Shown here: positions 18,468 to 40,918 of the stretch, piece by piece
How the letters are laid out: every line of letters begins with the position of its first letter
Numbering within the stretch: position 1 is the first letter of the stretch
Source: Desulfobacterales bacterium
Lineage (GTDB): Bacteria; Desulfobacterota; Desulfobacteria; Desulfobacterales; JALSRD01
Length of the DNA stretch: 64,000 bases
Reading direction: 5' to 3'
Assembly: GCA_026984935.1 (NCBI GenBank)
Contig: JALSRD010000035.1
Coordinates: forward strand, 32,000 to 95,999
Notes under the pieces: model-generated
Database searches by the model: none
What the model saw: the letters and a program-made list of their open reading frames with translations, nothing else
Told to the model about the DNA's origin: nothing
Translations under genes and position numbers: made by a program

Positions 18468-18556
18468 ACGGCACCGCCGGCCGAGCCTGAAAGGCATATT
18501 GCACGGCTCGACGGCAACCTTTTTATGAAGCCTTGCGACACCCGGCGAAACAGGTC

Positions 18557-20694: not shown

Positions 20695-20714
20695 ATCGGA
20701 ATAGAAAGGAATCC

Positions 20715-22766: not shown

Positions 22767-23659
22767 AAGTCGGGCTGCGCATCGACGTCGACACCCTGCG
22801 GGGCACGCGCCGGGGCGTACCGGCCCTGCTGCAGCTGCTTGAAACGCTGGGAGTGCGCGCCAGCTTCTTTTTCTGCGTGGGTCCGGACAACATGGGGCGC
22901 AACGCTTTGCGCCTGCTGCGGCCGGACTTCCTCAAGAAAATGCGGCGCACGCACGCCGCCGGCCTGTACGGCTGGGACATTCTGCTCAAGGGCACGCTGG
23001 GCCCCGGCCCCAACATTGCACACCACGCCGGCAGCGTTATCGGCCAGACCGCCGCCAGGGGGCATGAAATCGGCCTGCACGCCTGGGACCACTGGGCCTG
23101 GCAGGCACGCATCGAACGTATGACACCGGCGGCCGTGCGGCGCAGCCTGGAAAAAGGCGTCGTACGGCTCCGGCAACTGACCGGCAGGAGGCCCGTGTGC
23201 TCCGCGGCGCCGGCCTGGAAGTGCACCGACCGGGTACTGCGCGAAAAAAACCGTTTCGCCTTTGCCTACAACAGCGACTGCCGCGGGCACAGCATCTTTT
23301 ACCCGCGTGCGGGCCGCGAAATACTCCCCCAACCACAGATTCCCGTAACCCTTCCGACTTACGATGAAGTCGTGGGCCGAGAAGGCGTCACGGCGGCGGA
23401 TTTCAACACCTATCTGTTCAGGTGCCTGCGGCCGGGAGCGCTCAACGTGCTGACCATTCACGCCGAAGTCGAAGGCATCGCCTGCCTGAAGCTGTTCGCC
23501 GGTTTTGCCCGCCGCGCCAGGGCCAGGGGAGTTACGCTGACGCCGCTGGGCGAACTGCTGGGCGATACGCGCCGCATCGCGCCCGCGGCCATCGTCACCG
23601 CCGAGACACCCGGCCGCCAGGGGTGGCTTTCGCTGCAGGAAGGAACCCATCCGGCATGA
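22763..23659 (+). CDS. arnD: 4-deoxy-4-formamido-L-arabinose-phosphoundecaprenol deformylase
   Basis: GTG 22763 overlaps the arnA stop (GTGA). [23 protein letters not shown]…[12 protein letters not shown]…LYGWDILL…[11 protein letters not shown]…[11 protein letters not shown]…TIHAEVEG closely parallels E. coli ArnD. Confidence 0.95.
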
Positions 23660-25311: not shown

Positions 25312-25432
25312 GACCGGAGCCGGTGCCGATTTACACCGGCGGCGCTTTGTGCTACACAATAGTTCGGAAGCCCGCAGGCGCCGTTTAAGCGGCATATTCC
25401 GGCGTCCGGAACACCAACTAATAGAGGGGCCC

Positions 25433-26116
25433 GTGAACAGGAAAGACGCCAGCGGCGGTGCAGCGGTCGAACGCCTGGTCAAACTGCCATTTAAAAAATC
25501 CTTGGAGATCTCCATCAAAAGCCTGCGGGCCCGTTTTTACCGCTCGCTGATCACGACGCTTAGCCTGGTGCTGGCGGTGTCTTTTTTGAGTTTTGTGCGC
25601 GTGGGAACGGACGTCGCCAACGGCCTCCTGGCCACCGGCGACCCGGCGCTGCGGCAGGCCCTGGTGCGGTCGGGTTACGACCTGGGGCCTGAAGATACGC
25701 ACACCGGCAGCAGCCCCAAACAGCGCTGGATTATCATCCTGTCACTGGTGGTCTGCACGGTGGGCATCATCAATGCGCAACTGATGGCGGTTACCGAAAG
25801 GTTCCGCGAAATCGGCACCATGAAATGCCTCGGGGCCCTGGACCGCTTTATTCTGAGACTCTTTCTCCTGGAATCGGGGATGCAGGGGCTGGCCGGCGCC
25901 TTTGCCGGAGCGCTCATCGGGGCCTTCTTTGCCGTGATCGGTGCCGGACTGCATTACGGAACGGTGGTTTTGCGTGTACTGCCGCTGTCGGACGTGGCCA
26001 TTTCCGTCGGCCTGGCCACCGGCGTGGGGTGCCTGCTGAGCCTGGTCGGCGTGCTTTACCCGGCCATTGTGGCCGCCCGCATGCAGCCGGTGGACGCCAT
26101 GCGCGTGGAACATTAG
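25433..26116 (+). CDS. FtsX-family ABC permease, minimal type (4 TM, very short periplasmic loop)
   Basis: GTG 25433 follows an AGAGGGG RBS. SLRARFYRSLITTLSLVLAVSFLSF (TM1), about 45 aa of loop, then the FtsX core IINAQLMAVTERFREIGTMKCLGALDRFILRLFLLESGMQGL…LYPAIVAARMQPVDAMR. Confidence 0.85.
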   Translation: MNRKDASGGAAVERLVKLPFKKSLEISIKSLRARFYRSLITTLSLVLAVSFLSFVRVGTDVANGLLATGDPALRQALVRSGYDLGPEDTHTGSSPKQRWIIILSLVVCTVGIINAQLMAVTERFREIGTMKCLGALDRFILRLFLLESGMQGLAGAFAGALIGAFFAVIGAGLHYGTVVLRVLPLSDVAISVGLATGVGCLLSLVGVLYPAIVAARMQPVDAMRVEH

Positions 26117-26175: not shown

Positions 26176-26913
26176 ATGCCGCAGACGACACACATCGTAC
26201 GCGTATCCAAAGTGACCAAGAACTTTCATCTCGGCAAAGTCGAGGTGCGGGTGCTGAAAGGCATCGACCTGGAGATTGAACGCGGCAACTACATCTCCAT
26301 CATGGGGCCGTCCGGATCGGGCAAGAGCACGCTCTTCAACATGATCGGCGGCCTGGACAAACCCACCTCCGGCAAGGTCTTTATCGACGACGTGGACATC
26401 GCCCAGCTCGATGCCTATGAGCTGGCCTGGCTGCGCTGCCGTAAAATCGGCTATATTTTCCAGACTTTCAACATCATTCCGGTGATGACCGCGCTGGAGA
26501 ATGTCACCCTGCCCATGATTTTTGCCGGCGTGGGCAATGACGAGGCTGTTGAAAAGGGCATTCAGCTGCTGGAGCTGGTGGGTCTGGGCGACCGCTTTCA
26601 GCACAAGCCGTCCGAGCTTTCCGGCGGCCAGCAGCAACGCGTGGCCGTGGCCCGTGCACTGGCCAACGACCCGGCCATCATCCTGGCCGACGAACCCACG
26701 GGCAACCTGGACCTGACCACCGGCGAAGAAATTATCTACCTGCTCAAGCGGTTGTGCCGCGAACGCGGGGTAACCGTGATCTCCGCGACCCACGACTTCA
26801 AAATGCTCAACGTTTCAGACCAGGTGGTATGGATCCGCGACGGTCTGATCGATAAGATCGAGGGCCGTGACGAGCTTTCCATCTCGGTGGGTGAAATCGG
26901 CCGACGGGATTAA
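26176..26913 (+). CDS. ABC transporter ATP-binding protein (MacB/LolD/FtsE class)
   Basis: Walker [10 protein letters not shown]; Q-loop; signature [15 protein letters not shown]; Walker [13 protein letters not shown]; H-loop ATHD. Confidence 0.95.
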
Positions 26914-27025
26914 ACAATACCCCGCTCTGACACCTGCTGCACGTGCGCCCCGCCGGCGGTATCATCAATTGCAGACGGTTTTTTTATATTTCACTTTCGG
27001 CTTAAAATGTAAAATTGCTACCCAT

Positions 27026-30000
27026 ATGTCGATCCGCACTACTTCAGCAGACCGCCCAACACGCTGTGACCCGCCTGGCAGGTGGTATCGGCAGGCCTGC
27101 CTGTGCACGCTGGCCTGCGGCCTGATCCTGGCGATAATGTGCGCCGGCGCATTTGCCAAAGATTCCGAACCCGAAACCTTCAGCACCCTGATCGCGCGCT
27201 TCAGCAGAACCGGCGACCGCAGCACCGGCACACCGGGCAACGCCGCAGCCGCCCGGTTGATCAAAGCGGCCTTCAAGCGCAACGGGCTGGCGCCGGTGGG
27301 CAGCCAGTACTTCTCTCAACCTGTCCTGCAATTCGGACCCAGCCATCTGGTATTGCCCCAGCGCCACCTGCAGATTGCGATCTCGGCACTTGCCGCCAAC
27401 ATCATCGCACCGAACACGGTCCCTCCCGGAGGCATCGAGGGTCCGCTGATCTATGTGGGCGACGGCGCATTGCAGCACTTAAGCGGCAAAACCATCCGGG
27501 GTGCCGTGGTACTGATGGAACTGGACTCGGGCCGGAACTGGCAGTCGGCGGCCGACCTGGGAGCACGGGCTTTGATCTACATCGACCGCGGCGTAACCGA
27601 CAAAACACTTTTCGACGAGAAAATCGAACTGACACCGCTGCAGTTTCCGCGCTTCGACGTTCCCGCGGCAGACCTGCACAAGCTCTTCGGCGATTTCGAA
27701 AAGGCCCCCCGTGGCCTTGTGGCCGGCCGCATCCGCATCGACGGCCGTGCCCGATGGGTCAACGCCCCGGCCGAAAATATCTACGCACTGGTCGAGGGCA
27801 GCGATTCCAAACTCAAAGAAGAGCTGATCATCGTCGAGACTTTTTACGACAGCAGTCGGCGGGTCGCTGGGCATTCGCCCGGCGCCGATGAAGCCTGCGG
27901 CATCGCCAGCCTGCTGAATCTGGCCCGGGACCTGAAAAGCCACCCGCCGGCACGCTCCGTTCTGCTGGTGGCCACCGGCGCCCATGCCCAGACGCTGGCC
28001 GGCATGCGTGAACTGATCGCGGCCATCCGCACCCGCAGTCTTGATATGCGCCGGCGCAAAAGGATGCTCAAAGCCCTTGCCTCGCACAGCCGCGAGGTAT
28101 TGCAGCGCCTGCGGCAGGCCATGCAGACCGACGACCTGCAGCAGCTTCTGTCCGATGACCCGCGCATCAACCGGCAGGTGCACCAGGCACTCAACGACCG
28201 CATCAAAACGCGCACCGATCACCTCTCGCGCCTTTTGATGAAACTGCGTCTGCAGACAGCCGGCCGGCAACAGGCGGCCATCGATGCCGCCGCCAACCGC
28301 CGCCTTTTGCTGCGGCGGCTGGGATGGCGCCAGACTTTCGCGGACCTGCCGCCCGCCGAAGCGGCTGTTTTGAAAACCCTGATCCCCGAAACCATGGCCG
28401 CCCAGAAACACATCCTGGCCGACGCCCGGCGGCAGTTGAAGCAGATCAAAAGCGCGCGCGCACTGCGTGCCGTCGTCAAAAGCCACGAACTCACGGCGGT
28501 CATTGCGCTGCACCTCTCCAGCCACGGCGACGGTGTGGGCGCCTTCAGCCGCGGTTTTCTCTACCCCCTGAAACCGACCATCAACCGCGTCACGCCTTAC
28601 AGCCGGCTGGACGAAGTCCTCAGGCAGGCGGCGGCCGAGGTTCAGCAACAGCTGGGCGTCAAAGGGTTCTTTCACGATACCCTGCGGCCCAGCCACCTGA
28701 AACCCTGGCAGAGCTTCTTCATCGACCGGCCCCTGCTGGGCGGCGAAGTGGCGTCGCTGGCCGGATACCTGGGCATCTCGCTGGCCACCACCAACGATGC
28801 GCGCCGGGCCTGGGGCACCCCCGGCGACCGGCCCGAAAACATGGATATGGTTTTTGCCGCACGGCAGGACCGGCTGGTGCGCGGGGTCATCCGCTACCTG
28901 GCGCAGGGCCATCCGCTGACCACCAACATCTCCCCGCGCAATGGGTTCGCCACGGTCAACGGCCGGGTCAACTTTCTGCGCCAGGGCGAACTTTTCGCCG
29001 ACCAGGCGGCACCCGACAGCGTCATCCTGGCCTACCAGGGCCCCGTCCACTACCTGGCCATGACCGATGCCCGCGGGACGTTCATGCTAAAAGGTGTCGC
29101 CGACAAAAAGCACGAACTGCACAAAGTCATCATCGAAGGCTACAGGTTCGACCCGGACAGCGGCACGGCCATCTGGGCCATTGACAAAAAAAAGACCGGC
29201 AAACCGGCGTACCGGCTCAAAATGAAACGGCGGCGCATGGTCACCAACCTGGTCATGTTCGCCTGCCGGCAGAGTACGCTGTTCAACCTCCTGGAACCGC
29301 GCAATTTTCACTACATGACCAAAATCCAGCTATTGGACGGCCGTCGCAACGCGCCACCACTGCGGTACTGGTTCAGCCGCACGGATACCCGCTCTTCCAC
29401 GCTCCTGTCCCTCTTCCTGGAGCCGGGAACGCCTTTCAAGTTGACCCTTGCGGACACGGTGCTGCGCAAAAAACTGATCCTGATCAATGCCGCCCCCGAA
29501 AACCCCAACGGCAGCGGCTACCGTATCGACGACTGGCCTTTTCTGCAGCCGACCGAACTCAAGGTGGCCCGCGACATGTGGACCCTGCTGGCACCCCGGA
29601 TTACCAACCTGGAAGCGCACGGCATTTTCGACGCCCGCATCCGCGGCCTGCAGCGGGCCGGTACGGCCGCCCTGGAGCAGGCGCAAAAAGCGCTGGCAGC
29701 CCGGCGCTACAGCCGCTTCTCGGAAGAAGCCCTCAAATCCTGGGCACTGGCCACCCGGGTTTACGATCATGTCGAAAAAACCCAGAAAGACGTGCTTTTC
29801 GGCGTGCTTTTTTATATCGCCCTGTTCGTCCCTTTTGCTTTCTGCGCCGAACGGCTGCTGTTCTCCTACACCAATATCCACAAACGCATCGTCGCCTTTC
29901 TGGCGATCCTGCTGCTGCTGATCGCGGTCATTTACAAGGTGCATCCGGCCTTTCAGCTGGCCTACAGCCCCACTGTCGTGATCCTGGCCTTTTTTATCAT

Positions 30001-31903
30001 CGGCCTCTCTTTGATGGTGACGCTGATCATTTTCTTTCGTTTTGAAGAGGAAATGGCACGCCTGCAGAAACGCGCCACCAGGGCCTTCAGCGGCGAAATC
30101 AGCCCCTGGAAAGCCTTTGTGGCCGCCTTCTTTCTGGGCGTCAGCAACCTGCGGCGACGGCGCCTGCGCACCGCCCTGACGTGCATTACCCTGATCATCC
30201 TGACTTTCACCATCATGAGCTTCACTGCCGTCAAGTCCCAGCGCCGGCATACGCGACTTCTGTACCAGAAAACCATCCCCTACCGCGGTTTTCTGCTCAA
30301 AACCATCAACTGGCGGGATCTACCCCCGGAAACTCTCGGCGTGCTCGCGCACATTTTCCCCCAAGGCAGCCATGTGGCCGCGCGCGTCTGGCTGGAAAAC
30401 GAAGACCGCACGCGCACCACCGCTGTTATGCTGCACAATGCCAAAGCCGCTTTCGAAGCCCGGGGTGTTGTGGGGCTTTCGTCCGCTGAACCGGCGGTTT
30501 CCGGCATCGACCGGATCCTGACGGCCGGCCGCTGGTTTGCGCCCCGCGAACGCTTTGCAGCTATCCTGCCGCAGGCCATGGCCCGCCGGCTGAACATCGA
30601 CCCGAACACCCCCCGAACGGCACATGTGCGCATATGGGGCATCGACTTCCATGTGGTGGGGACTTTTTCGTCCCGCGCTCTGGCACGGCACGTCGACCTG
30701 GATGGAGAAATCCTGACACCGGTGACTTTTCCCAGCGAGGCGGCCACCACACTGACCGAAGTCGAGATGGATGCTCTGGAATCCGGCGAAGACGTGCGTT
30801 CGTTCCAGAGCCGCTACCAGCACGTACCGGCCGAACGCACCCTCATCATACCGGCTGCCACACTACTGCGCCTGGGCGGCCATCTCAAGGGTGCGGCGGC
30901 CGGGCTCCCTGCAGATGCACACCCCCGTCAAGTGGCCGCAAAACTGGTGGACCGTCTGGAACTAAGCCTCTTTTCCGGCGAACCGCGGGGCACCTTTCTC
31001 TACCAGGCCAGCGATACCCTCAGTTACAGCGGTATGCCCAATATCATTATCCCGCTGGCCATTTCGGTTTTCATCGTCCTGAACACCATGATCGGAAGTG
31101 TCTTTGAGCGCAAAAACGAAATCGCTATTTACACTTCCGTGGGGCTGGCACCTTCGCACGTCGCCTTTCTCTTCATCGCCGAATCGTTGGCTTTCGCCGT
31201 ACTGAGCGTGGTACTCGGCTATCTGCTGGCCCAGGTTTCCGCCAGCCTGTTTGCCGGCACGGCACTGTGGGCCGGCATCACGGTGAACTACTCCTCGCTG
31301 GCGGGTGTGGCGGCCATGATCCTGGTGATTCTGGTGGTGCTGGTTTCGGTGATCTACCCGTCACGGGTGGCCGCCCGCATCGCCATACCGGATATCAACC
31401 GCTCCTGGACGCTGCCCGAATCCCAGGGCAACACGCTATCCATCACCCTGCCGTTTTTGATGAAAATGGATGAATACTGCGGTGTGGGCGGCTACCTGCT
31501 GGATTACTTCAACAGCCACCAGGACGTTTCCCACGGCATATTTTCCACCGGCGAAGTCCGCTGCCAGGCCCAGCGCCCGGCTCCCGACGACAACCTGACA
31601 TCATCGCAACCGCGGCCGGTTTATTTCCAACTGGACTCGCGCGTCTGGCTGGCGCCCTTCGACCTGGGGATCATGCAGCAGGTGCAGCTGTCCATCGGAC
31701 CAGCGGCCGACGAACCCGGTTTTCTGGAGATCCGGGTGATGCTGGCACGCGAATCCGGTGAAGCCAACACCTGGCATCGCATCAACCGGGTGTTTTTAAA
31801 CCGGCTGCGGCGCCAGCTGCTGGCATGGCGTTCACTGGACAAGGACACCAAATCCGGCTATATTCGCCTGGTCAACGAATACCGGACAGCGGCCAGCGCC
31901 TGA
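27026..31903 (+). CDS. 1625-aa fusion: N-terminal anchor + PA/M28-like (apparently inactive) ectodomain + helical region + FtsX-type ABC permease + C-terminal domain of unknown function
   Basis: TM ACLCTLACGLILAIMCAGAFA. PA domain GPLIYVGDGALQHLSGKTIRGAVVLMELDSGRNWQSAADLGARALIYID. M28-like core NIYALVEG…IIVETFYDS…SPGADEACGIASLLNLAR…SVLLVATGAHAQTLAG. Three TMs lie around aa 985-1050. FtsX unit LRRRRLRTALTCITLIILTFTIMSF … FERKNEIAIYTSVGLAPSHVAFLFIAESLAF … IYPSRVAARIAIPD. Confidence 0.85.
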   Translation: MSIRTTSADRPTRCDPPGRWYRQACLCTLACGLILAIMCAGAFAKDSEPETFSTLIARFSRTGDRSTGTPGNAAAARLIKAAFKRNGLAPVGSQYFSQPVLQFGPSHLVLPQRHLQIAISALAANIIAPNTVPPGGIEGPLIYVGDGALQHLSGKTIRGAVVLMELDSGRNWQSAADLGARALIYIDRGVTDKTLFDEKIELTPLQFPRFDVPAADLHKLFGDFEKAPRGLVAGRIRIDGRARWVNAPAENIYALVEGSDSKLKEELIIVETFYDSSRRVAGHSPGADEACGIASLLNLARDLKSHPPARSVLLVATGAHAQTLAGMRELIAAIRTRSLDMRRRKRMLKALASHSREVLQRLRQAMQTDDLQQLLSDDPRINRQVHQALNDRIKTRTDHLSRLLMKLRLQTAGRQQAAIDAAANRRLLLRRLGWRQTFADLPPAEAAVLKTLIPETMAAQKHILADARRQLKQIKSARALRAVVKSHELTAVIALHLSSHGDGVGAFSRGFLYPLKPTINRVTPYSRLDEVLRQAAAEVQQQLGVKGFFHDTLRPSHLKPWQSFFIDRPLLGGEVASLAGYLGISLATTNDARRAWGTPGDRPENMDMVFAARQDRLVRGVIRYLAQGHPLTTNISPRNGFATVNGRVNFLRQGELFADQAAPDSVILAYQGPVHYLAMTDARGTFMLKGVADKKHELHKVIIEGYRFDPDSGTAIWAIDKKKTGKPAYRLKMKRRRMVTNLVMFACRQSTLFNLLEPRNFHYMTKIQLLDGRRNAPPLRYWFSRTDTRSSTLLSLFLEPGTPFKLTLADTVLRKKLILINAAPENPNGSGYRIDDWPFLQPTELKVARDMWTLLAPRITNLEAHGIFDARIRGLQRAGTAALEQAQKALAARRYSRFSEEALKSWALATRVYDHVEKTQKDVLFGVLFYIALFVPFAFCAERLLFSYTNIHKRIVAFLAILLLLIAVIYKVHPAFQLAYSPTVVILAFFIIGLSLMVTLIIFFRFEEEMARLQKRATRAFSGEISPWKAFVAAFFLGVSNLRRRRLRTALTCITLIILTFTIMSFTAVKSQRRHTRLLYQKTIPYRGFLLKTINWRDLPPETLGVLAHIFPQGSHVAARVWLENEDRTRTTAVMLHNAKAAFEARGVVGLSSAEPAVSGIDRILTAGRWFAPRERFAAILPQAMARRLNIDPNTPRTAHVRIWGIDFHVVGTFSSRALARHVDLDGEILTPVTFPSEAATTLTEVEMDALESGEDVRSFQSRYQHVPAERTLIIPAATLLRLGGHLKGAAAGLPADAHPRQVAAKLVDRLELSLFSGEPRGTFLYQASDTLSYSGMPNIIIPLAISVFIVLNTMIGSVFERKNEIAIYTSVGLAPSHVAFLFIAESLAFAVLSVVLGYLLAQVSASLFAGTALWAGITVNYSSLAGVAAMILVILVVLVSVIYPSRVAARIAIPDINRSWTLPESQGNTLSITLPFLMKMDEYCGVGGYLLDYFNSHQDVSHGIFSTGEVRCQAQRPAPDDNLTSSQPRPVYFQLDSRVWLAPFDLGIMQQVQLSIGPAADEPGFLEIRVMLARESGEANTWHRINRVFLNRLRRQLLAWRSLDKDTKSGYIRLVNEYRTAASA

Positions 31904-31912
31904 GACGACTCT

Positions 31913-33952
31913 ATGCAACCGGAACCTCCCACTTCTGACAGCGTTACAGAAAACCGCAGCCACGCGGCGCCCGACGGGGCCGTGGTACGCCCGCGGGCAA
32001 TCATTCTGGGATTCCTGCTGGCTGCCGTGATCTGTGCCGCAACGCCCTTCAACAACACCTATCGCCAGGCCACGCCGCTGGGCGGCGGCCATTTCCCGCT
32101 GGCGCCTTTTTTCATCCTGGTCTGGCTGACCCTGCTGGTGGCCGGCGGCAGGCGGATCTTTACGGGGAAAAAGATTCTTTCCGGCACCGAACTGCTGGTC
32201 TGCTGGATCCTGATGGTGCTCGTTTCCGGCATCCCCTACACCGGGCTGATGCGCACGTTGTTGATCAACCTGACGGCACCCTATCATTTCGCCAGCATGG
32301 GAAACCGCTGGCCGGACACGCTGCAGCCGCTCCTGCCGCACAGCTGGTATCCCCAGAGCCGGAAGGCCATCACCGCTCTTTACGACGGCCTGCCCGGCGG
32401 CCGCCAGATGTCCTGGTGGCAGGTCATCCGCCGGATTCCCTGGCAGGCCTGGGCGACGCCCGTCATGGTCTGGGGCAGCTTCATCCTGGCTTGCTATTTC
32501 GTCATGATCTGCATGATCAACCTCCTGAGCCGCCAGGCCCTGTCCCACGAACGCATGAATTTCCCCCTGCTGCGGGTTCCCATTCTGATGGAAGAAGCCC
32601 TGGACCAGAGCCGACTGGGGCGTTTTTTCGCTAACCGTTTTATGCTGGCCGGAATGGCCATCCCGGTCTTTCTGCACCTGATCAACGGCTTTCATTTTTA
32701 CAACCCGTCGGTCCCCCAGATTCCGACGCTCATCCTGGCCGGGCCCTACTTCCCCAAACACGGCCTTTTTTCCGGATTCGCCAAACTGAAGATCTACTTC
32801 TATCCGGCCTTCATCGGCTTTGCCTTCCTGGCCTCCAAACAGATTTCCTTTTCCTTCTGGCTCTTTTTCATCCTGGGGGCCCTGCTCTACGGCATACTCG
32901 GCCTGCTGGGCTACAACATCCCGGCATCGGCGCTGGGCATTACCTTCGGCCCCACGCTCGCCCGCCCCGAGGAAACCCAGATGATCGGCGCCTATGGTAT
33001 TTTTTTCGTCTTTTTGGTCTGGCTGGCGCGCCGACACCTGGTAGACGTCATCCGGCAGGCAATGGGCCGCCGGCCCTCGGCTGCAACCGAGGGTGACTGG
33101 CTCTCCACGCGCATCTCGTTCTGGGGGTTTTTCATCGGCTCCAGCGTACTGGTTCTGTGGCTGCATTTTTTCGGGCTGCCGCTGTGGGCCTCCGTAGTCG
33201 TTCTGTGCGCCTTTTTCATGGTCATGCTGGTGGCCAGCCGCGTGATCTGCCAGGGCGGCGTCGCCTACTTTACACTGACCGCCGCACCCATGGACGGCCT
33301 GCTCACCTTTTTCGGTCCGCAGTTCTTCACCCAGGTGGGCATTCTCATTACGGCGGTGGTGCAAAAAGTGCTCTTCGTCGACCTGCGCGAATCGCTGATG
33401 CCGTCGCTGCTGCACGCCCAAAGAATCACCCACGGCGTGCGTGCCCGGCGCGGGCTGATCACCGGCGGAATTTTCGCCACCCTGATCAGCGGCGTGGCCG
33501 TGTCGTTTGTCGCCATGCTGGCCTTAGGGTACAAATTCGGGCTGCGGGAGCTTCAGCTGGACTGGGCCACGCGCACCAGCGTGGCGGTTTATGAAAATAT
33601 CAACACGCTGGTTACCACGCCGGTGAAACCCGGCCACTGGGTCCTGATTTTCACGCTCATCGGTGCGGCCGTAATGCTTGTGCTCGTGGCCTGCTATCAC
33701 CGTTTCTACTGGTGGCCGATCCACCCCATCGGCTACCTTACGGCATACAGCTCCGCCATGCGCATCCTGTGGTTCAGCTTTTTTGTCGGCTGGCTGGCAA
33801 ACGCCCTGTGCATGCGGTACGGGGGCGTCGTTTTGTTCAAACGGCTGCGTTATTTTTTTATCGGTCTGATTATCGGAGACTTTCTGATGGGCGGCGGCTG
33901 GGCCATATACGGCCTGTTCAGTGATGCCAGCTACCAGGTGCTGCCGGGATAA
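31913..33952 (+). CDS. large polytopic inner-membrane protein of unknown function (679 aa)
   Basis: Many hydrophobic helices run throughout. Trp-rich loop (MSWWQVIRRIPWQAWATPVMVWGSF) followed by ERMNFPLLRVPILMEE. Real-gene codon bias (GC3-rich). No characterised family recognised, though it is possibly distantly OPT-like. Confidence 0.75.
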   Translation: MQPEPPTSDSVTENRSHAAPDGAVVRPRAIILGFLLAAVICAATPFNNTYRQATPLGGGHFPLAPFFILVWLTLLVAGGRRIFTGKKILSGTELLVCWILMVLVSGIPYTGLMRTLLINLTAPYHFASMGNRWPDTLQPLLPHSWYPQSRKAITALYDGLPGGRQMSWWQVIRRIPWQAWATPVMVWGSFILACYFVMICMINLLSRQALSHERMNFPLLRVPILMEEALDQSRLGRFFANRFMLAGMAIPVFLHLINGFHFYNPSVPQIPTLILAGPYFPKHGLFSGFAKLKIYFYPAFIGFAFLASKQISFSFWLFFILGALLYGILGLLGYNIPASALGITFGPTLARPEETQMIGAYGIFFVFLVWLARRHLVDVIRQAMGRRPSAATEGDWLSTRISFWGFFIGSSVLVLWLHFFGLPLWASVVVLCAFFMVMLVASRVICQGGVAYFTLTAAPMDGLLTFFGPQFFTQVGILITAVVQKVLFVDLRESLMPSLLHAQRITHGVRARRGLITGGIFATLISGVAVSFVAMLALGYKFGLRELQLDWATRTSVAVYENINTLVTTPVKPGHWVLIFTLIGAAVMLVLVACYHRFYWWPIHPIGYLTAYSSAMRILWFSFFVGWLANALCMRYGGVVLFKRLRYFFIGLIIGDFLMGGGWAIYGLFSDASYQVLPG

Positions 33953-34006
33953 AATCCAGAGTCCCCGACGCGGCGCAAATGTAAATTCAACACACGGACC
34001 GCATAG

Positions 34007-35974
34007 ATGTACGAAGACAGAGAACTGCAGGAATACCGCGATCTGCTGAAGCCGCCGGATCACTTCGAGGAGGGCTTCGACTGGAAGGCCATTGTGGGCG
34101 CGGTCTTCATCGGCTTTTTGATGATGCCGGGCAGCATGTACCTGCAGCTGGTTATCGGCAGCGGCATCGGTCCCGCCGCCCGCTGGGTGACCATCATCCT
34201 GTTTGCCGAAATCGCCAAGAGATCCTATACCGAACTCAAGCAGCAGGAGATCTTTCTGCTCTACTACATGGCGGGCGCCGCCCTGGCCTCGCCTTTCCAG
34301 GGCCTTTTGTGGAATCAGTACCTGGTGCAGTCCGATGCCGCCCGCATGCTGGGGTTGACCGAATTTATCCCCAGGTGGGTGGCCCCGGCCCCCGGATCGC
34401 AATCTTTGATCGAACGCACCTTCTTCCACCGCGACTGGATGATTCCCATCCTGCTGCTCATCGGCTCCCAGATCATCCAGCGCATCGACCAGTTCGGGCT
34501 GGGCTATGCCCTCTACCGCATCACCTCCGATGTGGAGAAACTGCCCTTTCCCATGGCACCGGTGGGCGCCCTGGGAACCATGGCCCTGGCCGAATCCACC
34601 GAGGACAAGCAGAAGAGCTGGAAGTGGCGGGTGTTTTCCATCGGCGGGGTCATCGGCCTGGCCTTCGGCGCACTTTACGTCATGCTGCCCACGGTCTCGG
34701 GGCTGCTCTTCACCGAGCCGGTCCAATTGATCCCCATTCCCTGGGTCGAGCTGACGCGCCACACCGAAAATGTCCTGCCGGCGGTGGCCACCGGCATCCA
34801 GCTGGACCTGGGCCTGATCTTCATCGGCATGGTGCTGCCCTTCTGGGCGGTGATGGGCGGCCTGGCCGGGCTGCTGATCACCGTGGCCGCCAACCCCATC
34901 CTCTACCGCCACGGAATCCTGCACCGCTGGCATCCGGGCATGGGGACCGTGGATACCGTTTTTGCCAACAATTTCGATTTTTACATGAGTTTCGGCATCG
35001 GCCTGGGCCTGGCCATCGCCTTCATCGGCATCTGGCACGTACTGCGCTCTTTCGGCAACCGCGGCGCCGCCGGAGGGCCGCGTCCCAGCTTCGCGGATCT
35101 TTTCCGGCCGCCGCCGGGCCGGGGGGATTTCAACTTCTGGATCTCCATCGGGATTTACCTTTTTTCAACGCTGTCCTACACCGGCCTGTGCCTCTGGCTG
35201 GTTCCCAGCTTTCCGTGGTTGTTCTTCGTGATCTACGGATTTGTCTACACGCCCATCGTGTCTTATATTACAGCCAGGATGGAGGGCATCGCGGGCCAGT
35301 TCGTCAGCCTGCCGCTGGTGCGCGAAGCCAGCTTCATCGCCGGATCGAAATTTTTCGGCTACCACGGCATCGAAATCTGGTACGCGCCCATTCCGATTCA
35401 CAACTACGGCGCCGCCACCGTCAGTTTCCGCGAAATCGAGCTGACAGGCACCAGCATCCGTGGTATCATCAAGGCCGAGATCGTGGTTTTCCCGGTGGTG
35501 ATGGTGGCCAGCCTGCTCTTTTCACAGTTCATCTGGCAGCTGGCGCCCATTCCCTCCAGCAGCTACCCCTATGCCCAGGAAATGTGGCACCTGCAGGCGC
35601 TCAACACGCTGCTCATGCAGACCTCGACGCTGGAGGGAAACGCGCTTTTTTACCAGGCATTAAGCGGCAGTTACGTACTGTCGGGACTCGGTTTCGGAAT
35701 CGTCACCTATTTCCTTCTGACCCTATTCGGGCTGCCCATTTTGCTGATTTACGGCGTCGTGCGCGGACTGGGCCAGAGCACCCCGCACGGCATGATCCTG
35801 GAAGTGGTCGGTGCCCTGCTGGGACGTTTTTTCTTCCTGAAGCGTTACGGCGGCATGTGGCGCCAATACGCACCCGTGCTGCTGGCCGGCTTTTCGTGCG
35901 GCATGGGACTGACCGGCATGTTCGCCATGGGATTTACATTGATTCTGAAGTCACTGGGACGGCTGGCTTACTGA
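34007..35974 (+). CDS. large polytopic inner-membrane protein of unknown function, OPT-superfamily-like (655 aa)
   Basis: Multi-TM protein. The motif DVEKLPFPMAPVGALGTMALAES resembles the conserved L-x-FPSG-x-A motif of OPT oligopeptide transporters. The assignment is from memory and is tentative. Confidence 0.75.
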   Translation: MYEDRELQEYRDLLKPPDHFEEGFDWKAIVGAVFIGFLMMPGSMYLQLVIGSGIGPAARWVTIILFAEIAKRSYTELKQQEIFLLYYMAGAALASPFQGLLWNQYLVQSDAARMLGLTEFIPRWVAPAPGSQSLIERTFFHRDWMIPILLLIGSQIIQRIDQFGLGYALYRITSDVEKLPFPMAPVGALGTMALAESTEDKQKSWKWRVFSIGGVIGLAFGALYVMLPTVSGLLFTEPVQLIPIPWVELTRHTENVLPAVATGIQLDLGLIFIGMVLPFWAVMGGLAGLLITVAANPILYRHGILHRWHPGMGTVDTVFANNFDFYMSFGIGLGLAIAFIGIWHVLRSFGNRGAAGGPRPSFADLFRPPPGRGDFNFWISIGIYLFSTLSYTGLCLWLVPSFPWLFFVIYGFVYTPIVSYITARMEGIAGQFVSLPLVREASFIAGSKFFGYHGIEIWYAPIPIHNYGAATVSFREIELTGTSIRGIIKAEIVVFPVVMVASLLFSQFIWQLAPIPSSSYPYAQEMWHLQALNTLLMQTSTLEGNALFYQALSGSYVLSGLGFGIVTYFLLTLFGLPILLIYGVVRGLGQSTPHGMILEVVGALLGRFFFLKRYGGMWRQYAPVLLAGFSCGMGLTGMFAMGFTLILKSLGRLAY

Positions 35975-35983
35975 GGAGCAACC

Positions 35984-36598
35984 ATGAAATACATTCTTCC
36001 CCTTCTGGCACTCATACTCCTTTTCCTGGGTACAGATGTCTGCCGCGCGGATGTCCCGCACCAGGTGGCCGGGTTCGTGCTCGGCACGGACATCTCCCGT
36101 TATACAGACAAACTCAACATGCAAAGCGCACTGCCCGTAAGATTCAGGCCCTATCTCAAAGAGGTCGAGACCCGCAACCTGCCGGGATTTAAAATCGGTC
36201 TGGTTACCTACGGCACCTGCGCCGCACCCAACCATATCGTGCGCATCCGGCTCAAATACGAAAACGCCTCCAAGAAATTCTTTGAACTGCTGCTCAAGCG
36301 CTTTAAACGCCGTTTCGGTCCGGATCCGGAGTGGCGCGGCGATCCCTTCGAGGTCATCATCGCCTGGAAGTGGTCGTTCGTAGATGCCAAGAAAAACCGC
36401 ATCAGCTTGATTTTACAGCATAACACGCTGAACAAAAACGAGAAGATGGGAAACGTGGTCAAACTCACCATGTGGAACCGCATCGAGGCCGAACGCGCCT
36501 GCTGGGACAAGACCCATCCCGAGCACCGGCTGGCCCCCAAGGAAGCGGAAAGCATGCCGTGGGGACCCAGGTTCTGGCAACACTGCATTCCGCGTTGA
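35984..36598 (+). CDS. secreted protein of unknown function (204 aa)
   Basis: Signal peptide MKYILPLLALILLFLGTDVCRA. It is tightly packed (9-bp gap) behind the membrane protein gene. No family recognised. Confidence 0.7.
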   Translation: MKYILPLLALILLFLGTDVCRADVPHQVAGFVLGTDISRYTDKLNMQSALPVRFRPYLKEVETRNLPGFKIGLVTYGTCAAPNHIVRIRLKYENASKKFFELLLKRFKRRFGPDPEWRGDPFEVIIAWKWSFVDAKKNRISLILQHNTLNKNEKMGNVVKLTMWNRIEAERACWDKTHPEHRLAPKEAESMPWGPRFWQHCIPR

Positions 36599-36636: not shown

Positions 36637-37503
36637 ATGGATCGGAGAAACATCGACTGGAACGGAATCCACTTCCAAGTGCCCCGGGACTGGGAAATCA
36701 CACGCATCGACCGGCGCTATCTGGTGCTGGAAAGCGTCGGAGCGCCCCAAATGGAAGTCAAATGGCATGCCATCCGCGGACCTTTTCGTAGGGCCCGTTA
36801 TTACAAGCGGCTGTCAGACGCCTGCGGGGCATCCGGACGATTCGAACCCATGGACCTGCCAAATGCCTGGCGCAGCGCGCTGGCGGATTTCACGGCCGCC
36901 GCCTTTACCTGGCAAAAGGGGAAGCTGCAGTCCCGCGGGGTTGTCCTGCACTGCCGCACCTGCCGCAAGGTCTGCCTGGTGCAGTTTTTTGGTACCCTTG
37001 CGGCGCGCACAGACGATGTAGCGCGGCAGATACTGGCCACCTTTCGCGACCATGCCGAAGATTCGGTGCGCGACTGGTCGGTCTTCGATATTCGCGCCCG
37101 GCTTCCCCGGCCTTACGTGCTGAAACATTTTTGTTTTGAAGCCGGACGCTATGAGCTTGTCTGGCAGCACAAGCGCCGCATGCTCACCCTGATGCGCTGG
37201 GGACCGGCAGCGGCCCTGCTTGACGGCCGTAAACTGGCGGCGTTCGCCGCCCGGCAACTGGGCATTGCGGAGCACCGCTGGCAGCCGGCCGGTGGCGCTT
37301 CGGCAAAGACCGCACTGCAGTGGCGGCGCCCCGCAACCCGCATGGCGGTCTGGCAACTGTTTCCGGCACCGGTACGCGTGCAGGCGGCGCGTATCTGGCA
37401 CCGGCCGGCCGAAAATCGTATTCTGGCGGCAGTATTCAAAGACTGCAAAGCCATCGAGCAAGACGACCTGGATACCATCTGCGGCAGCTATGAAGCGCTT
37501 TAA
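36637..37503 (+). CDS. cytoplasmic protein of unknown function (288 aa)
   Basis: No signal peptide or TM. It has a CxxC (HCRTCRKVC). Its stop overlaps the start of the next gene by 14 bp. No family recognised. Confidence 0.65.
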   Translation: MDRRNIDWNGIHFQVPRDWEITRIDRRYLVLESVGAPQMEVKWHAIRGPFRRARYYKRLSDACGASGRFEPMDLPNAWRSALADFTAAAFTWQKGKLQSRGVVLHCRTCRKVCLVQFFGTLAARTDDVARQILATFRDHAEDSVRDWSVFDIRARLPRPYVLKHFCFEAGRYELVWQHKRRMLTLMRWGPAAALLDGRKLAAFAARQLGIAEHRWQPAGGASAKTALQWRRPATRMAVWQLFPAPVRVQAARIWHRPAENRILAAVFKDCKAIEQDDLDTICGSYEAL

Positions 37504-37879
37504 ACGCCAACCCGAGGCAGCGGCGCTGTCCCGCGAGGAAGCCTTGAACTGTGTTCCCGTAAAAAGTCGCCATATACACGAAGAGCGCATGCCATCGGGC
37601 GACGCCCTGATCGCCTACCCCCAGCAGCTGCGCCCCCTGCCGCGCTTTCTGCTGCGCCGCCTGGGGAAAAAACCGCCGGCCATGCCGCCGCGCAAGCTGC
37701 AGCTGGACAATCTGGGTACCGATGTGTGGAATCTCATCGATGACCGCCGCAGCGTGCGCCGGATCGTTAAACGCTTTGCCGAGATCCACCGTCTGCCGCG
37801 GCGGGAAGCCGAACTTTCGGTGACGCGCTTTCTGCGCGAGCTGGGAAAACGCGGGCTCGTGGCCATGAAACGGACGTAA
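37490..37879 (+). CDS. PqqD-family (RiPP-recognition-element-like) protein
   Basis: The C-terminal 60 aa, LQLDNLGTDVWNLIDDRRSVRRIVKRFAEIHRLPRREAELSVTRFLRELGKRGLV, follow the PqqD winged-helix pattern (ln.t...iw.l.dg..tv.eia..l...y.v......Dv..fl..L...gl). Confidence 0.7.
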   Translation: MKRFKRQPEAAALSREEALNCVPVKSRHIHEERMPSGDALIAYPQQLRPLPRFLLRRLGKKPPAMPPRKLQLDNLGTDVWNLIDDRRSVRRIVKRFAEIHRLPRREAELSVTRFLRELGKRGLVAMKRT

Positions 37880-37882
37880 GAG

Positions 37883-38530
37883 ATGAGCGACCAGGAGCCG
37901 GAAGCCATGCTCGAAAAGTATCTGGCGGCGCATACCGACGCCCTGCCGGAACTGTGCGTGGACCTTCTGGAAGAGACCGAGCGCAAGACCGGGCGGGCAC
38001 ACTGGAGTATCGGCAAGGTCGAGGGCCGCTTTCTGCAGATGATCGTCCGCCTTTCCCGAACCCGTCAGGCGGTGGAAGTGGGCACTTTTACCGGTTTTTC
38101 GGCCCTGATGATCGCCGCCGCGCTGCCGCCGGACGGTTGCCTGGTGACCTGCGAAATCGATCCCCAGGTGGCTGAAATCGCCCGGCGCTATTTCGCAAAA
38201 AGCCCCCATGGGCACAAAATCCGTCTGGAGCTGGGGCCGGCCATTGACACACTGCGGGAAATGGCGCCGGGCCGAACAGACTTTGTCTTCATCGACGCCG
38301 ACAAGACCCTGTACAGCCGCTATTTTGACGAGGCGTACCGCATCCTGCGCAGCGGCGGCCTGATTCTGGTGGACAACGTCTTCTGGCGCAGGAAGGTGCT
38401 GCGCAGCCGCATTCGCAACGCCAACGCCCGCGCCATCGCCGCCTTGAATGCCAAAATCGCGCAGGATACGCGCGTCGAAAAAGTCATGCTCAACCTGCGC
38501 GACGGGGTCTACCTGATTCGCAAAAAATGA
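37883..38530 (+). CDS. class I SAM-dependent O-methyltransferase (family 3, caffeoyl-CoA OMT-like)
   Basis: VEVGTFTGFSALMIAAAL (SAM motif I) … FVFIDADKTLYSRYFDEAYRILRSGGLILVDNVFWRRKV is typical of the cation-dependent OMT family. Confidence 0.9.
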   Translation: MSDQEPEAMLEKYLAAHTDALPELCVDLLEETERKTGRAHWSIGKVEGRFLQMIVRLSRTRQAVEVGTFTGFSALMIAAALPPDGCLVTCEIDPQVAEIARRYFAKSPHGHKIRLELGPAIDTLREMAPGRTDFVFIDADKTLYSRYFDEAYRILRSGGLILVDNVFWRRKVLRSRIRNANARAIAALNAKIAQDTRVEKVMLNLRDGVYLIRKK

Positions 38531-38537
38531 AATGTGC

Positions 38538-39428
38538 TCACCGCAGCGCCGCTGCAAAACGTGCGGCCTGACGGCGCAGGTTGGCGGCCCAGTCGGCGGC
38601 CAGGGGATCGGCGGAAATGACTTTTGCCCCGATGGCCGCCGCCACGGTCCTGGCACTCTTGGCGGAAAACTGGGGCTGCACGAAAATGGCCGTGATGCCG
38701 TGCCCGCGGCCGTAGCGGATCAGCTTCTGCAGCTGCTCCGGCTTGGGATCTTTCCCCTCGATTTCCACCGGCAGCTGCCGCAGGCCGTAGGTGCGCGCAA
38801 AATACCCCCAGGCCGGGTGAAAGACCATAAATTCCCGCCGCCGCAGACCCGCCAGGGTGGCGCGTATTTCACGGTCCAGTCTGTCCAGAAAGGCGACGAA
38901 ACTTGTGAAGTTTTTCTTGTACTGGGCTGCGTGGTCGGGATCCGCCCCGGCCAGGGCCCGATAAATGTGGCGTGCCTGGATTTTGACCAGCGGCGGCGAA
39001 AGCCAGATATGGGGATCCTTGACGCCCGTATGCGAAAGGCCGGAGGACGGTGCCCGGCCCGGACGGAACGTCCTTGCCATGGCGATTTTGGAGATGCCGC
39101 CGTCGGTGTGAACCACCAGCAGGTGCGCGTTGGCCGCCTGGAACCTCGGCAGCCAGGTTCTTTCGAAAGGCACACCGACGGCAAAGTAAATTTTCGCGCG
39201 CGAAAGCGCCACCATCTGGCCGGGCCTGGGCTCATAGGTGGCCGGACTGGCCCCGGGCGGTACCATGACCGCCGGGTGCACATGGGCGCCGCCGATTTTT
39301 TCGACAAAAAATCGCTGCGGCGGGATACTCACAAAAACGTTGAGCGGCCCCGCCTGCACAGGCGCCGCCCCCACACCCGCCAGCAGCAGTGCCGCCAGCA
39401 GAAGCTCGCAGCAGTGGGTGAATTTCAT
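38538..39428 (-). CDS. metal (Zn/Mn-type) ABC transporter substrate-binding protein, ZnuA/TroA family
   Basis: Signal peptide MKFTHCCELLLAALLLAGVGAAPVQA. The sequence VFVSIPPQRFFVEKIGG…PPGASPATYEP…HIWLSP…MVFHPAWGYFARTYGL is cluster-9 SBP-like. No cognate permease or ATPase lies adjacent. Confidence 0.85.
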   Translation of the reverse strand: MKFTHCCELLLAALLLAGVGAAPVQAGPLNVFVSIPPQRFFVEKIGGAHVHPAVMVPPGASPATYEPRPGQMVALSRAKIYFAVGVPFERTWLPRFQAANAHLLVVHTDGGISKIAMARTFRPGRAPSSGLSHTGVKDPHIWLSPPLVKIQARHIYRALAGADPDHAAQYKKNFTSFVAFLDRLDREIRATLAGLRRREFMVFHPAWGYFARTYGLRQLPVEIEGKDPKPEQLQKLIRYGRGHGITAIFVQPQFSAKSARTVAAAIGAKVISADPLAADWAANLRRQAARFAAALR

Positions 39429-39479
39429 TTCAGGGCCTCCGTACTCCGTATCCCGAACCTGACGGTCTGTGCCGCCGAT

Positions 39480-39821
39480 TTACCCGGTTTTCAGTTGCGC
39501 CATGGCCGTCTGCATATCGGGGAAAATGGGCAGGAACGTGTCAAAACCCGATATTTCGAAGACTTCCCGGACATAATCCTCCATGGCGCAGAGGACCACT
39601 TTGCCGTCGACGGGTTTGAGCTTTTTGGCGGTCTTGTTCAGGATGCGCAGGCCCGCGCTGGTGATATAGTCGAGGGCCTGGCAGTCCACCACGATGAAGC
39701 GCACGCCGTTGTCGATGGATGTCGATATCTTGTCGTCAAATTCAGGCGCGGTGTTCGAATCCAAACGGCCGTTCAGCTTGAATACAGCGGTGTCATTCTC
39801 TTTTTCTTCTATAATTTCCAT
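39480..39821 (-). CDS. STAS-domain anti-sigma-factor antagonist (SpoIIAA/RsbV-like)
   Basis: 113 aa. FKLNGRLDSNTAPEF… VVDCQALDYITSAGLRIL carries the conserved phosphorylatable Ser in DYITSAGL. Confidence 0.92.
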   Translation of the reverse strand: MEIIEEKENDTAVFKLNGRLDSNTAPEFDDKISTSIDNGVRFIVVDCQALDYITSAGLRILNKTAKKLKPVDGKVVLCAMEDYVREVFEISGFDTFLPIFPDMQTAMAQLKTG

Positions 39822-39933
39822 CTGCTGCTCTCTCCTTTGCGTTCATCGCCGTATCGTGGCCATGCAGTCCGGCCAGGCGGTGAAAATTTTTGCAAACCCC
39901 CGCGTTCGCGTTCGTCGGCATCCGGACAGGCAT

Positions 39934-40365
39934 TCAGGGTGCCTTCCGGTCCAACGTTTTGGTCAACGTCAGGATATTCCGGTTGCCGACCCGCCTGTAC
40001 TGCATCCCCTGCATCAGCTCTTTGCAGATATGCACCCCCAGACCGCCGATTTCACGGTTTTCAACGGGGCCTTTCAGATCGGGGGATTTGAGCGCCACCG
40101 GGTTGAAGGGTTTGCCGTCATCTTCCAGCAAAATGGTCAGGCGGCCCCTGTCATGGGAGACAGAAATATGGATCCAGTGGGTTTTGTCGTCCCCAAAAGC
40201 ATACATGACGATGTTGGTGAAGAGCTCTTCCACCACCAGGTTGAGATGAAATATCTGCCTGCGGTCCAATCCCTGGGATTCACCAAAGGCCTGAATGCGC
40301 TCAAACAGCCGGTTGGTTTCCGAAAGGCTGTTTTTAAGCTTCAACGAAATTTTACCCGCAGCCAT
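39934..40365 (-). CDS. anti-sigma regulatory factor / Ser protein kinase (RsbW/SpoIIAB-like, HATPase_c)
   Basis: N-box VVEELFTNIVMYAF, G1 LEDDGKPFNP, G2 EIGGLGVHICKELM. The start is taken at ATG 40365; the ORF is open up to 40443. Confidence 0.85.
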   Translation of the reverse strand: MAAGKISLKLKNSLSETNRLFERIQAFGESQGLDRRQIFHLNLVVEELFTNIVMYAFGDDKTHWIHISVSHDRGRLTILLEDDGKPFNPVALKSPDLKGPVENREIGGLGVHICKELMQGMQYRRVGNRNILTLTKTLDRKAP

Positions 40366-40390
40366 CGCCACCACTTTCCCGGAAACGAGT

Positions 40391-40918
40391 TTACAGCACA
40401 CTGACGCCGGTTTTTTTGATGCAGGTCTCACAACTTTCGGCATGCCCGCTTAAAAACGCCTCTTCCCAGTCGCTGATACTCCGGATCAATGACTGAAAGA
40501 TCTTCGGAAAGGTTTCCGGAAAAGCCCCGATGCCTTTGACGAATTTCTCGCGCTCCAGGATCAGGACGTACACCTCCGTCGTGGCCTCAAGCGAAAAGAG
40601 CCGCGGCATACGCCCCAACAGCGACAGACTGCCCAGCAGCGTTCCGGCGCCATATGACCGTATCGTACACGGCCGGTCCTCGCAAGCGTACAGCAGATCG
40701 GCCGCCCCCGAAATGATATAGATGGCACAGCCGTCATCGTCCCCCTGGCGAAACAGGTACTCGCCGGCCTTAAAAGTTTCGCGGGTGCACAGGTAGGCCA
40801 GCACTTTCAGGACCTCCAGCGGCAGGGCGCCGAAAAAGCTCGTTTCACGCAACAGGCTGATGTTGTCCTGGAATTCACAGGATGCGCAGTTGTTACCGTT
40901 TTTTCCCGATAAGCTCAT
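40391..40918 (-). CDS. cyclic-nucleotide-binding-domain protein flanked by CxxC motifs
   Basis: cNMP beta-barrel pattern LRETSFFGALPLEVLKVLAYLCTRETFKAGEYLFRQGDDDGCAIYIISGAADL…GAGTLLGSLSLLGRMPRLFSLEATTEVYVLILERE. N-terminal CASC and C-terminal CETC. Its start overlaps the upstream ABC gene by 26 bp. Confidence 0.8.
   Translation of the reverse strand: MSLSGKNGNNCASCEFQDNISLLRETSFFGALPLEVLKVLAYLCTRETFKAGEYLFRQGDDDGCAIYIISGAADLLYACEDRPCTIRSYGAGTLLGSLSLLGRMPRLFSLEATTEVYVLILEREKFVKGIGAFPETFPKIFQSLIRSISDWEEAFLSGHAESCETCIKKTGVSVL

Follow-up and report, generated by a model that had tools for sequence, protein, structure and literature searches.

Two OPT-fold paralogues in a conserved gene module with a type VII ABC machine: a candidate peptide-translocating unit in Desulfobacterales

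Two adjacent genes near the middle of a 64,000-nucleotide stretch of contig JALSRD010000035.1 (assembly GCA_026984935.1, Desulfobacterales bacterium), referred to here as the window, encode two large membrane proteins that are designated A and B. Profile comparisons and predicted structures place both proteins in the fold of the oligopeptide transporter (OPT) superfamily and relate them to each other as remote paralogues, and the genes recur in a conserved module together with FtsX-type permeases and an ATP-binding cassette (ABC) ATPase. The reading favoured here, with a probability of about 0.5, is that A and B together may form the membrane-translocating unit of this module, working with a type VII ABC machine on a peptide-like substrate. 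The anatomy of the module is solid, whereas the function proposed for it is a guess.

Family, kinship and predicted fold of proteins A and B

The initial annotation described a tandem pair of polytopic proteins of about 650 residues separated by a 54-bp gap, and both the open reading frames (ORFs) and the two motifs reported for them hold on inspection (Table 1). A hydropathy scan indicates that A and B are strongly hydrophobic throughout, with many predicted membrane helices; the AlphaFold2 models contain ∼16–18 long helices as assigned by DSSP, and the crude hydropathy scan yields fewer distinct peaks. The two are regarded as genuine genes because thousands of homologues exist. A phmmer search with B of 1.8 billion cluster representatives retrieves 1,007 families at E < 1e-3, the closest homologues being 87–89% identical proteins from metagenome-assembled genomes (MAGs) of Desulfobacterales and Syntrophobacteria that carry the NCBI label ‘peptide transporter’. 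The A homologues of those same organisms are 66–78% identical, and the median identities across Desulfobacterales loci are 85% for B and 66% for A. A tblastn search with A of plasmids gives no match, and a scan for promoters and terminators gives nothing beyond shuffled expectation.

Within the motif of A, residues E213 and P218 are invariant among 49 diverse DUF6785 proteins (the family of A, described below). The motif of B was compared across alignment A3, which contains 44 diverse full-length B homologues of 24–88% identity; P182 is invariant and E177, L179, and F181 are conserved in at least 90%. The motif of A is aligned onto that of B in the profile-profile alignment. Because this E-F-P motif is conserved within both families and mutually aligned, it exceeds chance. 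Its form (D/E)-x-K-L-x-[FY]-P bears a putative resemblance to the ‘KLTYPSGTATA’ region of Yellow Stripe-like (YSL) proteins.

Pfam assigns A to DUF6785 (PF20581; E 1e-169, 565.6 bits against a cutoff of 25) and DUF6784 (PF20580; E 1e-35, 122.4 bits against a cutoff of 26.4), and every A homologue falls likewise in DUF6785/DUF6784. B has no direct Pfam match, these two families included, and neither protein has a match in NCBIfam. The connection of B to the OPT superfamily is made through intermediate sequences. Nineteen of the 44 aligned B homologues match the Pfam OPT model (PF03169, gathering score 25.8 bits), and P0364, P0381, P0346, and P0242 do so over nearly the full model with scores of 55.1, 49.5, 48.8, and 33.9 bits, respectively. 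The phmmer E values linking B to these four proteins are about 1e-48 to 1e-193, and P0242 is 53% identical to B. Since its homologues pass the OPT threshold, B is, by transitive homology, best classed as a divergent OPT-superfamily protein. Several B homologues (P0242, P0246, P0247, P0250, P0264, and P0265; 860–1,083 residues, 40–53% identical) contain a beta-propeller (Reg_prop/WD40) or PDZ insert at the short-loop position after B residue ∼543, and these inserts point to peptide or protein ligands.

The OPT-like character proposed for the pair in the initial annotation is thereby supported through the relatives of B, as well as by the structural matches given below. The accompanying statement that neither protein has an obvious characterised orthologue must be amended in that A has a named family, though one without an assigned function. 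No assigned function, fold relationship or paper for DUF6785/DUF6784 was found in the sources searched, and the placement of these families in the OPT fold appears to be undescribed.

Paralogy of A and B, also raised in the initial annotation, emerges from comparison of hidden Markov models (HMMs) and not from pairwise comparison. BLASTP of A against B aligns only the motif region with a non-significant E value of 3.1, and hhalign with a shallow alignment of A homologues (66–90% identity) gives a probability of 2.3%. Significance appeared only with alignment A4, in which the A family is extended by eight very divergent DUF6785 proteins taken from the neighbourhood of a distant B homologue (locus L085) and then from a search seeded there (P0391–P0398). 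The hhalign comparison of A4 with A3 has a probability of 97.9%, an E value of 5.8e-13 and a score of 113.7 over 587 columns, aligning A residues 18–674 with B residues 9–638. Controls in which either alignment is reversed, or in which A3 is shuffled in 25-column blocks in five trials, give scores of at most 31.6 and E values of at least 0.01, and because these remain low the signal is not attributable to hydrophobic composition. Of the aligned positions that are strongly conserved in both families, 20 of 24 have the same residue; the identical positions (A/B) include those of the E-x-x-x-F-P motif (among them E213/E177 and P218/P182), E93/E81, W180/W144, R443/R424, G449/G430, and the C-terminal glycines. 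Two Glu and one Arg among them are charged residues lying within the membrane, and the relatives that match Pfam OPT have these as well. As judged from these profiles, A and B are full-length remote paralogues that diverged anciently, and the few conserved charged intramembrane residues that they share argue that both retain the ancestral carrier chemistry. The fixed pairing of two such divergent OPT paralogues appears to be undescribed.

The AlphaFold2 models are of comparable quality for B (predicted local distance difference test, pLDDT, 87.5; predicted template-modelling score, pTM, 0.89) and A (pLDDT 86.2, pTM 0.88). In a Foldseek search of the PDB, the B model matches 7wst_A, with an E value of 3.3e-12 and template-modelling (TM) scores of 0.64/0.69, and 7wsr_A, the TM scores for the two entries being 0.64–0.70 over ∼666 columns. 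The A model matches 7wst_A (TM scores 0.58/0.64) and 7wsr_A (TM scores 0.60/0.67), with E values of 2.6e-8 and 4.8e-7. Both entries are barley Yellow Stripe 1 (HvYS1), which is the sole significant PDB fold match of either protein; the next matches have E > 0.01 and TM scores of ∼0.1. Structure-based alignment of A and B to YS1 gives 13–14% identity, and sequence searches of the PDB with A, B, and the profiles of alignments A3, A4, and A5 return nothing relevant, so that HvYS1 is reached by fold only. On these models, A and B are predicted to share the HvYS1 fold with its core domain and scaffold domain.

Conservation of the gene neighbourhood

The A family was located in 80 species-level Desulfobacterales genomes comprising 83 loci, and neighbouring genes were identified by tblastn. 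The gene order in Desulfobacterales is (methyltransferase)-FtsX-ABC-giant-A-B-p204-p288-PqqD, where ‘giant’ denotes a very large FtsX permease and p204 and p288 denote proteins of those lengths (Table 1). A adjoins B in 78 of the 83 loci, the small FtsX permease is found in 47 (a count limited by contig ends) and p204 in 48, and the remaining genes are present wherever the contig extends. Median identities across these loci are 84% for the ATPase, 68% for the small FtsX permease, 57% for the giant, 48% for p204, 45% for the PqqD-like protein, and 34% for p288. B thus equals the ATPase in conservation, which fits a protein making many constrained contacts. One complete MAG chromosome, CP070652.1, contains two A loci, of which L013 has the full module and L012 has a short 185-residue match to B and a short piece of the giant.

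In distant lineages, the trio of giant, A, and B recurs at 28–46% identity with its gene order shuffled. Locus L085 has the order ABC, DUF6785, a 1,916-residue FtsX giant, and a B homologue of 38% identity; L090 has DUF6785, a p288 homologue, PqqD, FtsX, ABC, a 1,626-residue giant, and a B homologue of 46% identity; and L094 has FtsX, DUF6785, a 1,461-residue giant with M28 and FtsX domains, and a true Pfam OPT protein that is 28% identical to B. In L088 a homologue of the giant (25% identity over 817 residues, E 9e-74) overlaps the start of a B homologue of 32% identity. The distant clade was surveyed in 80 further metagenomic loci found with alignment A6; 72 of them include upstream sequence, and in 49 of these the giant directly precedes B on the same strand. 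When the census is restricted to the 16 distant loci that extend 6 kb or more in both directions, every one has the giant and 13 have DUF6785; PqqD and p288 are undetected in the distant clade by simple HMMs. Many of the distant loci are metagenomic, and their GC contents range from 34% to 63%.

Cluster members assign relatives to Candidatus Poribacteria and to the archaeal phylum Candidatus Brockarchaeota, in which the pair of giant and B occurs (L088 and the protein cluster of P0332). By these assignments the module spans both prokaryotic domains, Bacteria and Archaea. The functional link between A/B and the ABC genes that had been suggested from the window is consistent with this synteny, which is maintained in about 80 Desulfobacterales species and rearranged in distant lineages. 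No paper on an association of OPT proteins with FtsX/MacB was found in the literature searched, and the linkage of A/B to a giant FtsX protein with a pseudo-M28 domain in Bacteria and Archaea appears to be undescribed.

Partner genes and surroundings of the module

The pair was originally described as lying between an ABC system and a secreted protein, and this arrangement is present in the window: FtsX, ATPase, and giant genes are upstream, and a gene for a protein with a signal peptide is downstream (Table 1). The genes downstream of B are all on the plus strand, with gaps of 3–59 bp or slight overlaps.

Table 1. Positions in the window of the A and B genes, their motifs, and neighbouring features.
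Feature	Position	Strand	Description
Small FtsX-type permease	25292..26116	+	Four transmembrane helices, short outer loop; Pfam FtsX 1.3e-13
ABC ATPase, LolD/MacB/FtsE type	26176..26913	+	Pfam ABC_tran 2.9e-34; NCBIfam LolD 229 bits, under cutoff
Giant FtsX permease	26867..31903	+	ORF of 1678 residues; Pfam M28 3e-6, FtsX 7e-10
ORF A, protein A	31913..33952	+	ATG start, 679 residues; Pfam DUF6785 (residues 26–543) and DUF6784 (residues 579–677)
Motif ERMNFPLLRVP in A	32549..32581	+	Residues 213–223
ORF B, protein B	34007..35974	+	ATG start, 655 residues; predicted divergent OPT-superfamily membrane protein
Motif EKLPFPMAPVGALGTMALAES in B	34535..34597	+	Residues 177–197
p204	35984..36598	+	204 residues; N-terminal signal peptide; no known family
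p288	36637..37503	+	288-residue soluble protein; unnamed family; conserved CxxC (C106, C109)
PqqD-like small protein (RRE-type, peptide-binding)	37490..37879	+	Pfam PqqD 9e-9; ORF listed as 37220–37879
Class I O-methyltransferase (Methyltransf_3)	37883..38530	+	Pfam 1.2e-55
ZnuA	38538..39428	-	
STAS	39480..39821	-	
HATPase_c_2	39934..40443	-	

The start of the small FtsX permease is probably near 25433, corresponding to the 227 residues found in sister contigs, and the likely start of the giant is the ATG at 27026, giving 1625 residues. The N-terminal part of the giant comprises a transmembrane anchor, ∼870 outer residues including a PA/M28 aminopeptidase-like domain, a helical region, and three transmembrane helices; the C-terminal part comprises a MacB-like FtsX module (one transmembrane helix, an outer domain of ∼270 residues, and three transmembrane helices) followed by a domain of ∼180 residues. 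The N-terminal domain can be aligned to M28 aminopeptidases that have a PA domain (PDB 2ek8, E 2.9e-4), the M28-like region being approximately residues 304–452 (27770–28220 in the window). In four very divergent giants, namely that of the window and those of L085, L090, and L094, the H-x-D motif has F, F, R, and F in place of its zinc-ligand His, and the catalytic and ligand Glu-Glu pair reads HA, HF, QA, and HD; three of the four share a His where the first Glu would be. Because the canonical His and Glu-Glu are lost, the M28-like domain is probably a binding module rather than a peptidase.

p288 has no match in Pfam or in the PDB; in alignment A7 of its family C282 and several Trp residues, the latter invariant, are conserved in addition to the CxxC motif. 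A homologue in the distant locus L090 (E 9e-7) accompanies a PqqD-like protein there too. The PqqD-like protein has 129 residues as called in L001. Association with the O-methyltransferase is variable (16 of 83 loci), the gene being downstream here and upstream of FtsX elsewhere. It is intact in the window (215 residues) and split into pieces of 129/137 and 89 residues in the L001–L003 contigs, which are 96–99% identical; this points to a frameshift or an error of assembly in those contigs. No MacA/HlyD-type adaptor or membrane-fusion protein and no outer-membrane duct is matched by Pfam or NCBIfam among the proteins of the operon.

A complete arnBCADT-like operon for aminoarabinose modification of lipid A lies directly upstream of the module (18533–25311). 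It consists of genes for a DegT aminotransferase, a GT2 protein, an ArnA-like formyltransferase/epimerase, a polysaccharide deacetylase, and an ArnT-like glycosyltransferase of the GT-C type (23422–25311; 488 bits, where the equivalog cutoff is 567 bits). This operon was rejected as the functional context of the module, ArnT being adjacent in only 3 of 83 loci. A 519-residue ORF at 38532–40091 on the plus strand was likewise rejected as a member of the operon; it has no family match, lies antisense to three minus-strand genes that are well supported (Table 1), and is probably spurious. Weak tblastn matches to this ORF occur in other loci. The GC content of the window is 0.53–0.57 in the first 8 kb, 0.64–0.67 at 14–24 kb, and near 0.60 thereafter.

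A proposed mechanism and its alternatives

In the proposed mechanism, A and B would form a pseudo-symmetric heterodimer with its contact at the scaffold domains, after the pattern of the YS1 homodimer. HvYS1 is a homodimer held together by the scaffold domains and a C-terminal strand, and an elevator-type mechanism has been proposed for it (PMC9691689). The substrate that the A/B pair would carry across the cytoplasmic membrane would be peptide-like, either an oligopeptide or a chelate derived from a peptide, and the small FtsX permease, the ATPase, and the giant would constitute the type VII (MacB/FtsEX/LolCDE-like) machine. In type VII ABC systems the motion driven by ATP is passed on to outer domains, and substrates are not carried through the bilayer. 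In keeping with this, the ATP-driven FtsX subunits would pass no substrate through the bilayer, and mechanotransmission would instead move the pseudo-peptidase binding domain of the giant, which would capture, present or release the substrate at the outer face, with the PqqD-like and p288 proteins handling the peptide at the inner face. We infer the physical complex, the heterodimer, the class of substrate, and the coupling to ATP, and the role of substrate conduit suggested in the initial annotation is an inference of the same kind. A peptide-like substrate is favoured by the M28/PA-like domain, the PqqD-like protein, the PDZ and propeller inserts, and the precedent of peptidase and OPT genes, since fusion to a peptidase gene, or a shared operon with one, is common for OPT genes in prokaryotes (PMC3061005). 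The direction of transport is tentatively taken to be uptake, because the characterised OPT members are importers.

A stronger form of this reading, which is possible but less likely than not, is that the module encodes an obligate hybrid machine in Bacteria and Archaea, in which a mechanical coupling would link a heterodimer of OPT-fold proteins, secondary carriers of the elevator type, to a type VII mechanotransmitter whose output domain, a pseudo-aminopeptidase, would take hold of a peptide substrate or pass it on. We know of no description of a secondary-transporter fold cooperating with a mechanotransmitting ABC system.

Comparison with known systems indicates both likenesses and departures. 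A and B resemble OPT (TC 2.A.67) and YSL proteins in their length of ∼650 residues, their many transmembrane helices, and their full-length match to the HvYS1 fold; they differ in being a fixed pair of divergent paralogues rather than the product of a single gene, and in being tied to FtsX-type ABC genes, an association that the searched literature describes for no OPT protein. The FtsX permeases, the co-resident cognate ATPase of LolD/MacB/FtsE type, and the large outer domain after the first transmembrane helix recall the type VII ABC systems MacB, LolCDE, FtsEX, and BceAB, and the degenerate peptidase-like domain recalls the arrangement of FtsEX-EnvC. However, the giant is far larger (1,460–1,920 residues) and has in addition a PA/M28-like domain at its N terminus and three further transmembrane helices, and the operon, in contrast to MacAB-TolC, has no gene for a MacA-type adaptor or for TolC. 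Neither A nor B is itself a component of an ABC system, and to our knowledge no type VII system has OPT-fold partners.

Several observations weigh against a translocating unit coupled to this machine. Neither A nor B scores on the Pfam OPT model, and none of 41 close A homologues matches it even at E < 10. The NPG and KIPPR motifs, which are described for many OPT proteins but not all (PMC3061005), are absent from both proteins; because they are not universal, this absence argues only against membership of the fungal/plant PT clade. An ATPase is nearby in just 2 of the 16 distant loci having at least 6 kb on both sides. In seven Desulfobacterales loci, a sub-lineage consisting of L018, L028, L036, L057, L069, L076, and L078, the genes A-B-p204-p288-PqqD occur with no giant or ABC gene within 10 kb, and at least one DUF6785 gene (L092) has no module partner nearby; coupling in cis is therefore not obligatory. 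Peptidase chemistry cannot be assumed for an M28-like domain that has neither the canonical His nor Glu-Glu. More generally, the evidence is one of co-location, which does not prove a physical complex, and both the substrate and the direction of transport are conjectural.

Some of these same observations are what would be expected if A and B were independent proton-coupled importers of the OPT type, taking up oligopeptides or metal chelates and sharing an operon by theme, for example peptide scavenging. Both proteins have the OPT fold and OPT-family relatives, the characterised OPT members act alone or as homodimers, some loci retain A and B without the giant or ABC genes, and in the distant clade an adjacent ATPase is rare. 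Nevertheless, we consider independent importers unlikely. The giant and B remain adjacent, in many cases with their stop and start overlapping, and the trio as a whole is maintained in Bacteria and in an archaeal phylum although gene order is shuffled, to an extent far beyond the usual behaviour of a shared regulon. Moreover, paralogues at ∼13% identity remain paired nearly everywhere, and 85% conservation would be unusual for B as a stand-alone nutrient importer.

Export in place of uptake is a less probable alternative, in which a cytoplasmic peptide bound by PqqD, and possibly modified by p288 or the O-methyltransferase, would leave through A/B, after which the FtsX machine would expel it or place it in the envelope. 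PqqD-like domains are peptide-binding chaperones of pathways for ribosomally synthesised and post-translationally modified peptides (RiPPs), MacB-type systems handle substrates that are already outside the cytoplasm, PqqD and p288 accompany the module even in the distant locus L090, and a methyltransferase is often adjacent, all of which would suit an exporter. Yet no gene for a precursor peptide, recognisable RiPP maturase, membrane-fusion protein or outer-membrane duct is seen in the operon, and simple HMMs fail to find PqqD and p288 in the distant clade. The known OPT members import, and the module is also present in an archaeon, where there is no outer membrane.

A and B might instead be pseudo-transporters, with an OPT fold that serves as a membrane scaffold, a receptor or a regulator for an FtsEX-like mechanotransmitter controlling an envelope process, a reading to which we give slightly less credence still. 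EnvC consists of a coiled coil and a degenerate LytM domain, and a degenerate peptidase domain is the output of FtsEX-EnvC; in the giant, a metallopeptidase-like domain that is degenerate and a helical region are joined to an FtsX module, recalling FtsX together with EnvC. The very high conservation of B and the protein-binding PDZ and beta-propeller inserts among its homologues are also compatible with a regulatory role. What speaks for a carrier rather than a pseudo-transporter is that both families and the OPT-positive relatives conserve two Glu and one Arg within the membrane, as would be expected of an active carrier, and that the complete OPT fold is kept over the full length of both A and B. 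Finally, identification of A and B as GT-C glycosyltransferases, polymerases or flippases of the arn operon, which has the ArnT-like GT-C (a separate gene and the sole GT-C in the vicinity) and other arn genes immediately upstream in its favour, is effectively refuted, since ArnT neighbours the module so rarely and there is no sequence or fold match to a GT-C enzyme, Wzy, O-antigen ligase or flippase, the strong match to a glycosyltransferase or polymerase family contemplated in the initial annotation not having occurred.

The placement of A and B gives a fold and a superfamily to DUF6785/DUF6784, which have thousands of members, and equally to a ‘peptide transporter’ family of very high conservation that lies outside Pfam. 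It also defines a deeply conserved module, consisting of the giant and two OPT-fold paralogues with or without the ATPase, PqqD-like, and p288 proteins, in Desulfobacterota, Poribacteria, and Brockarchaeota. The module would offer an accessible case for the study of prokaryotic OPT proteins, which are almost uncharacterised, and residues E81, E177, and R424 of B and E93, E213, and R443 of A are candidates for mutation. If the parts do act together, a secondary-carrier fold would here be joined to an ATP-driven mechanotransmitter in a manner that is new.

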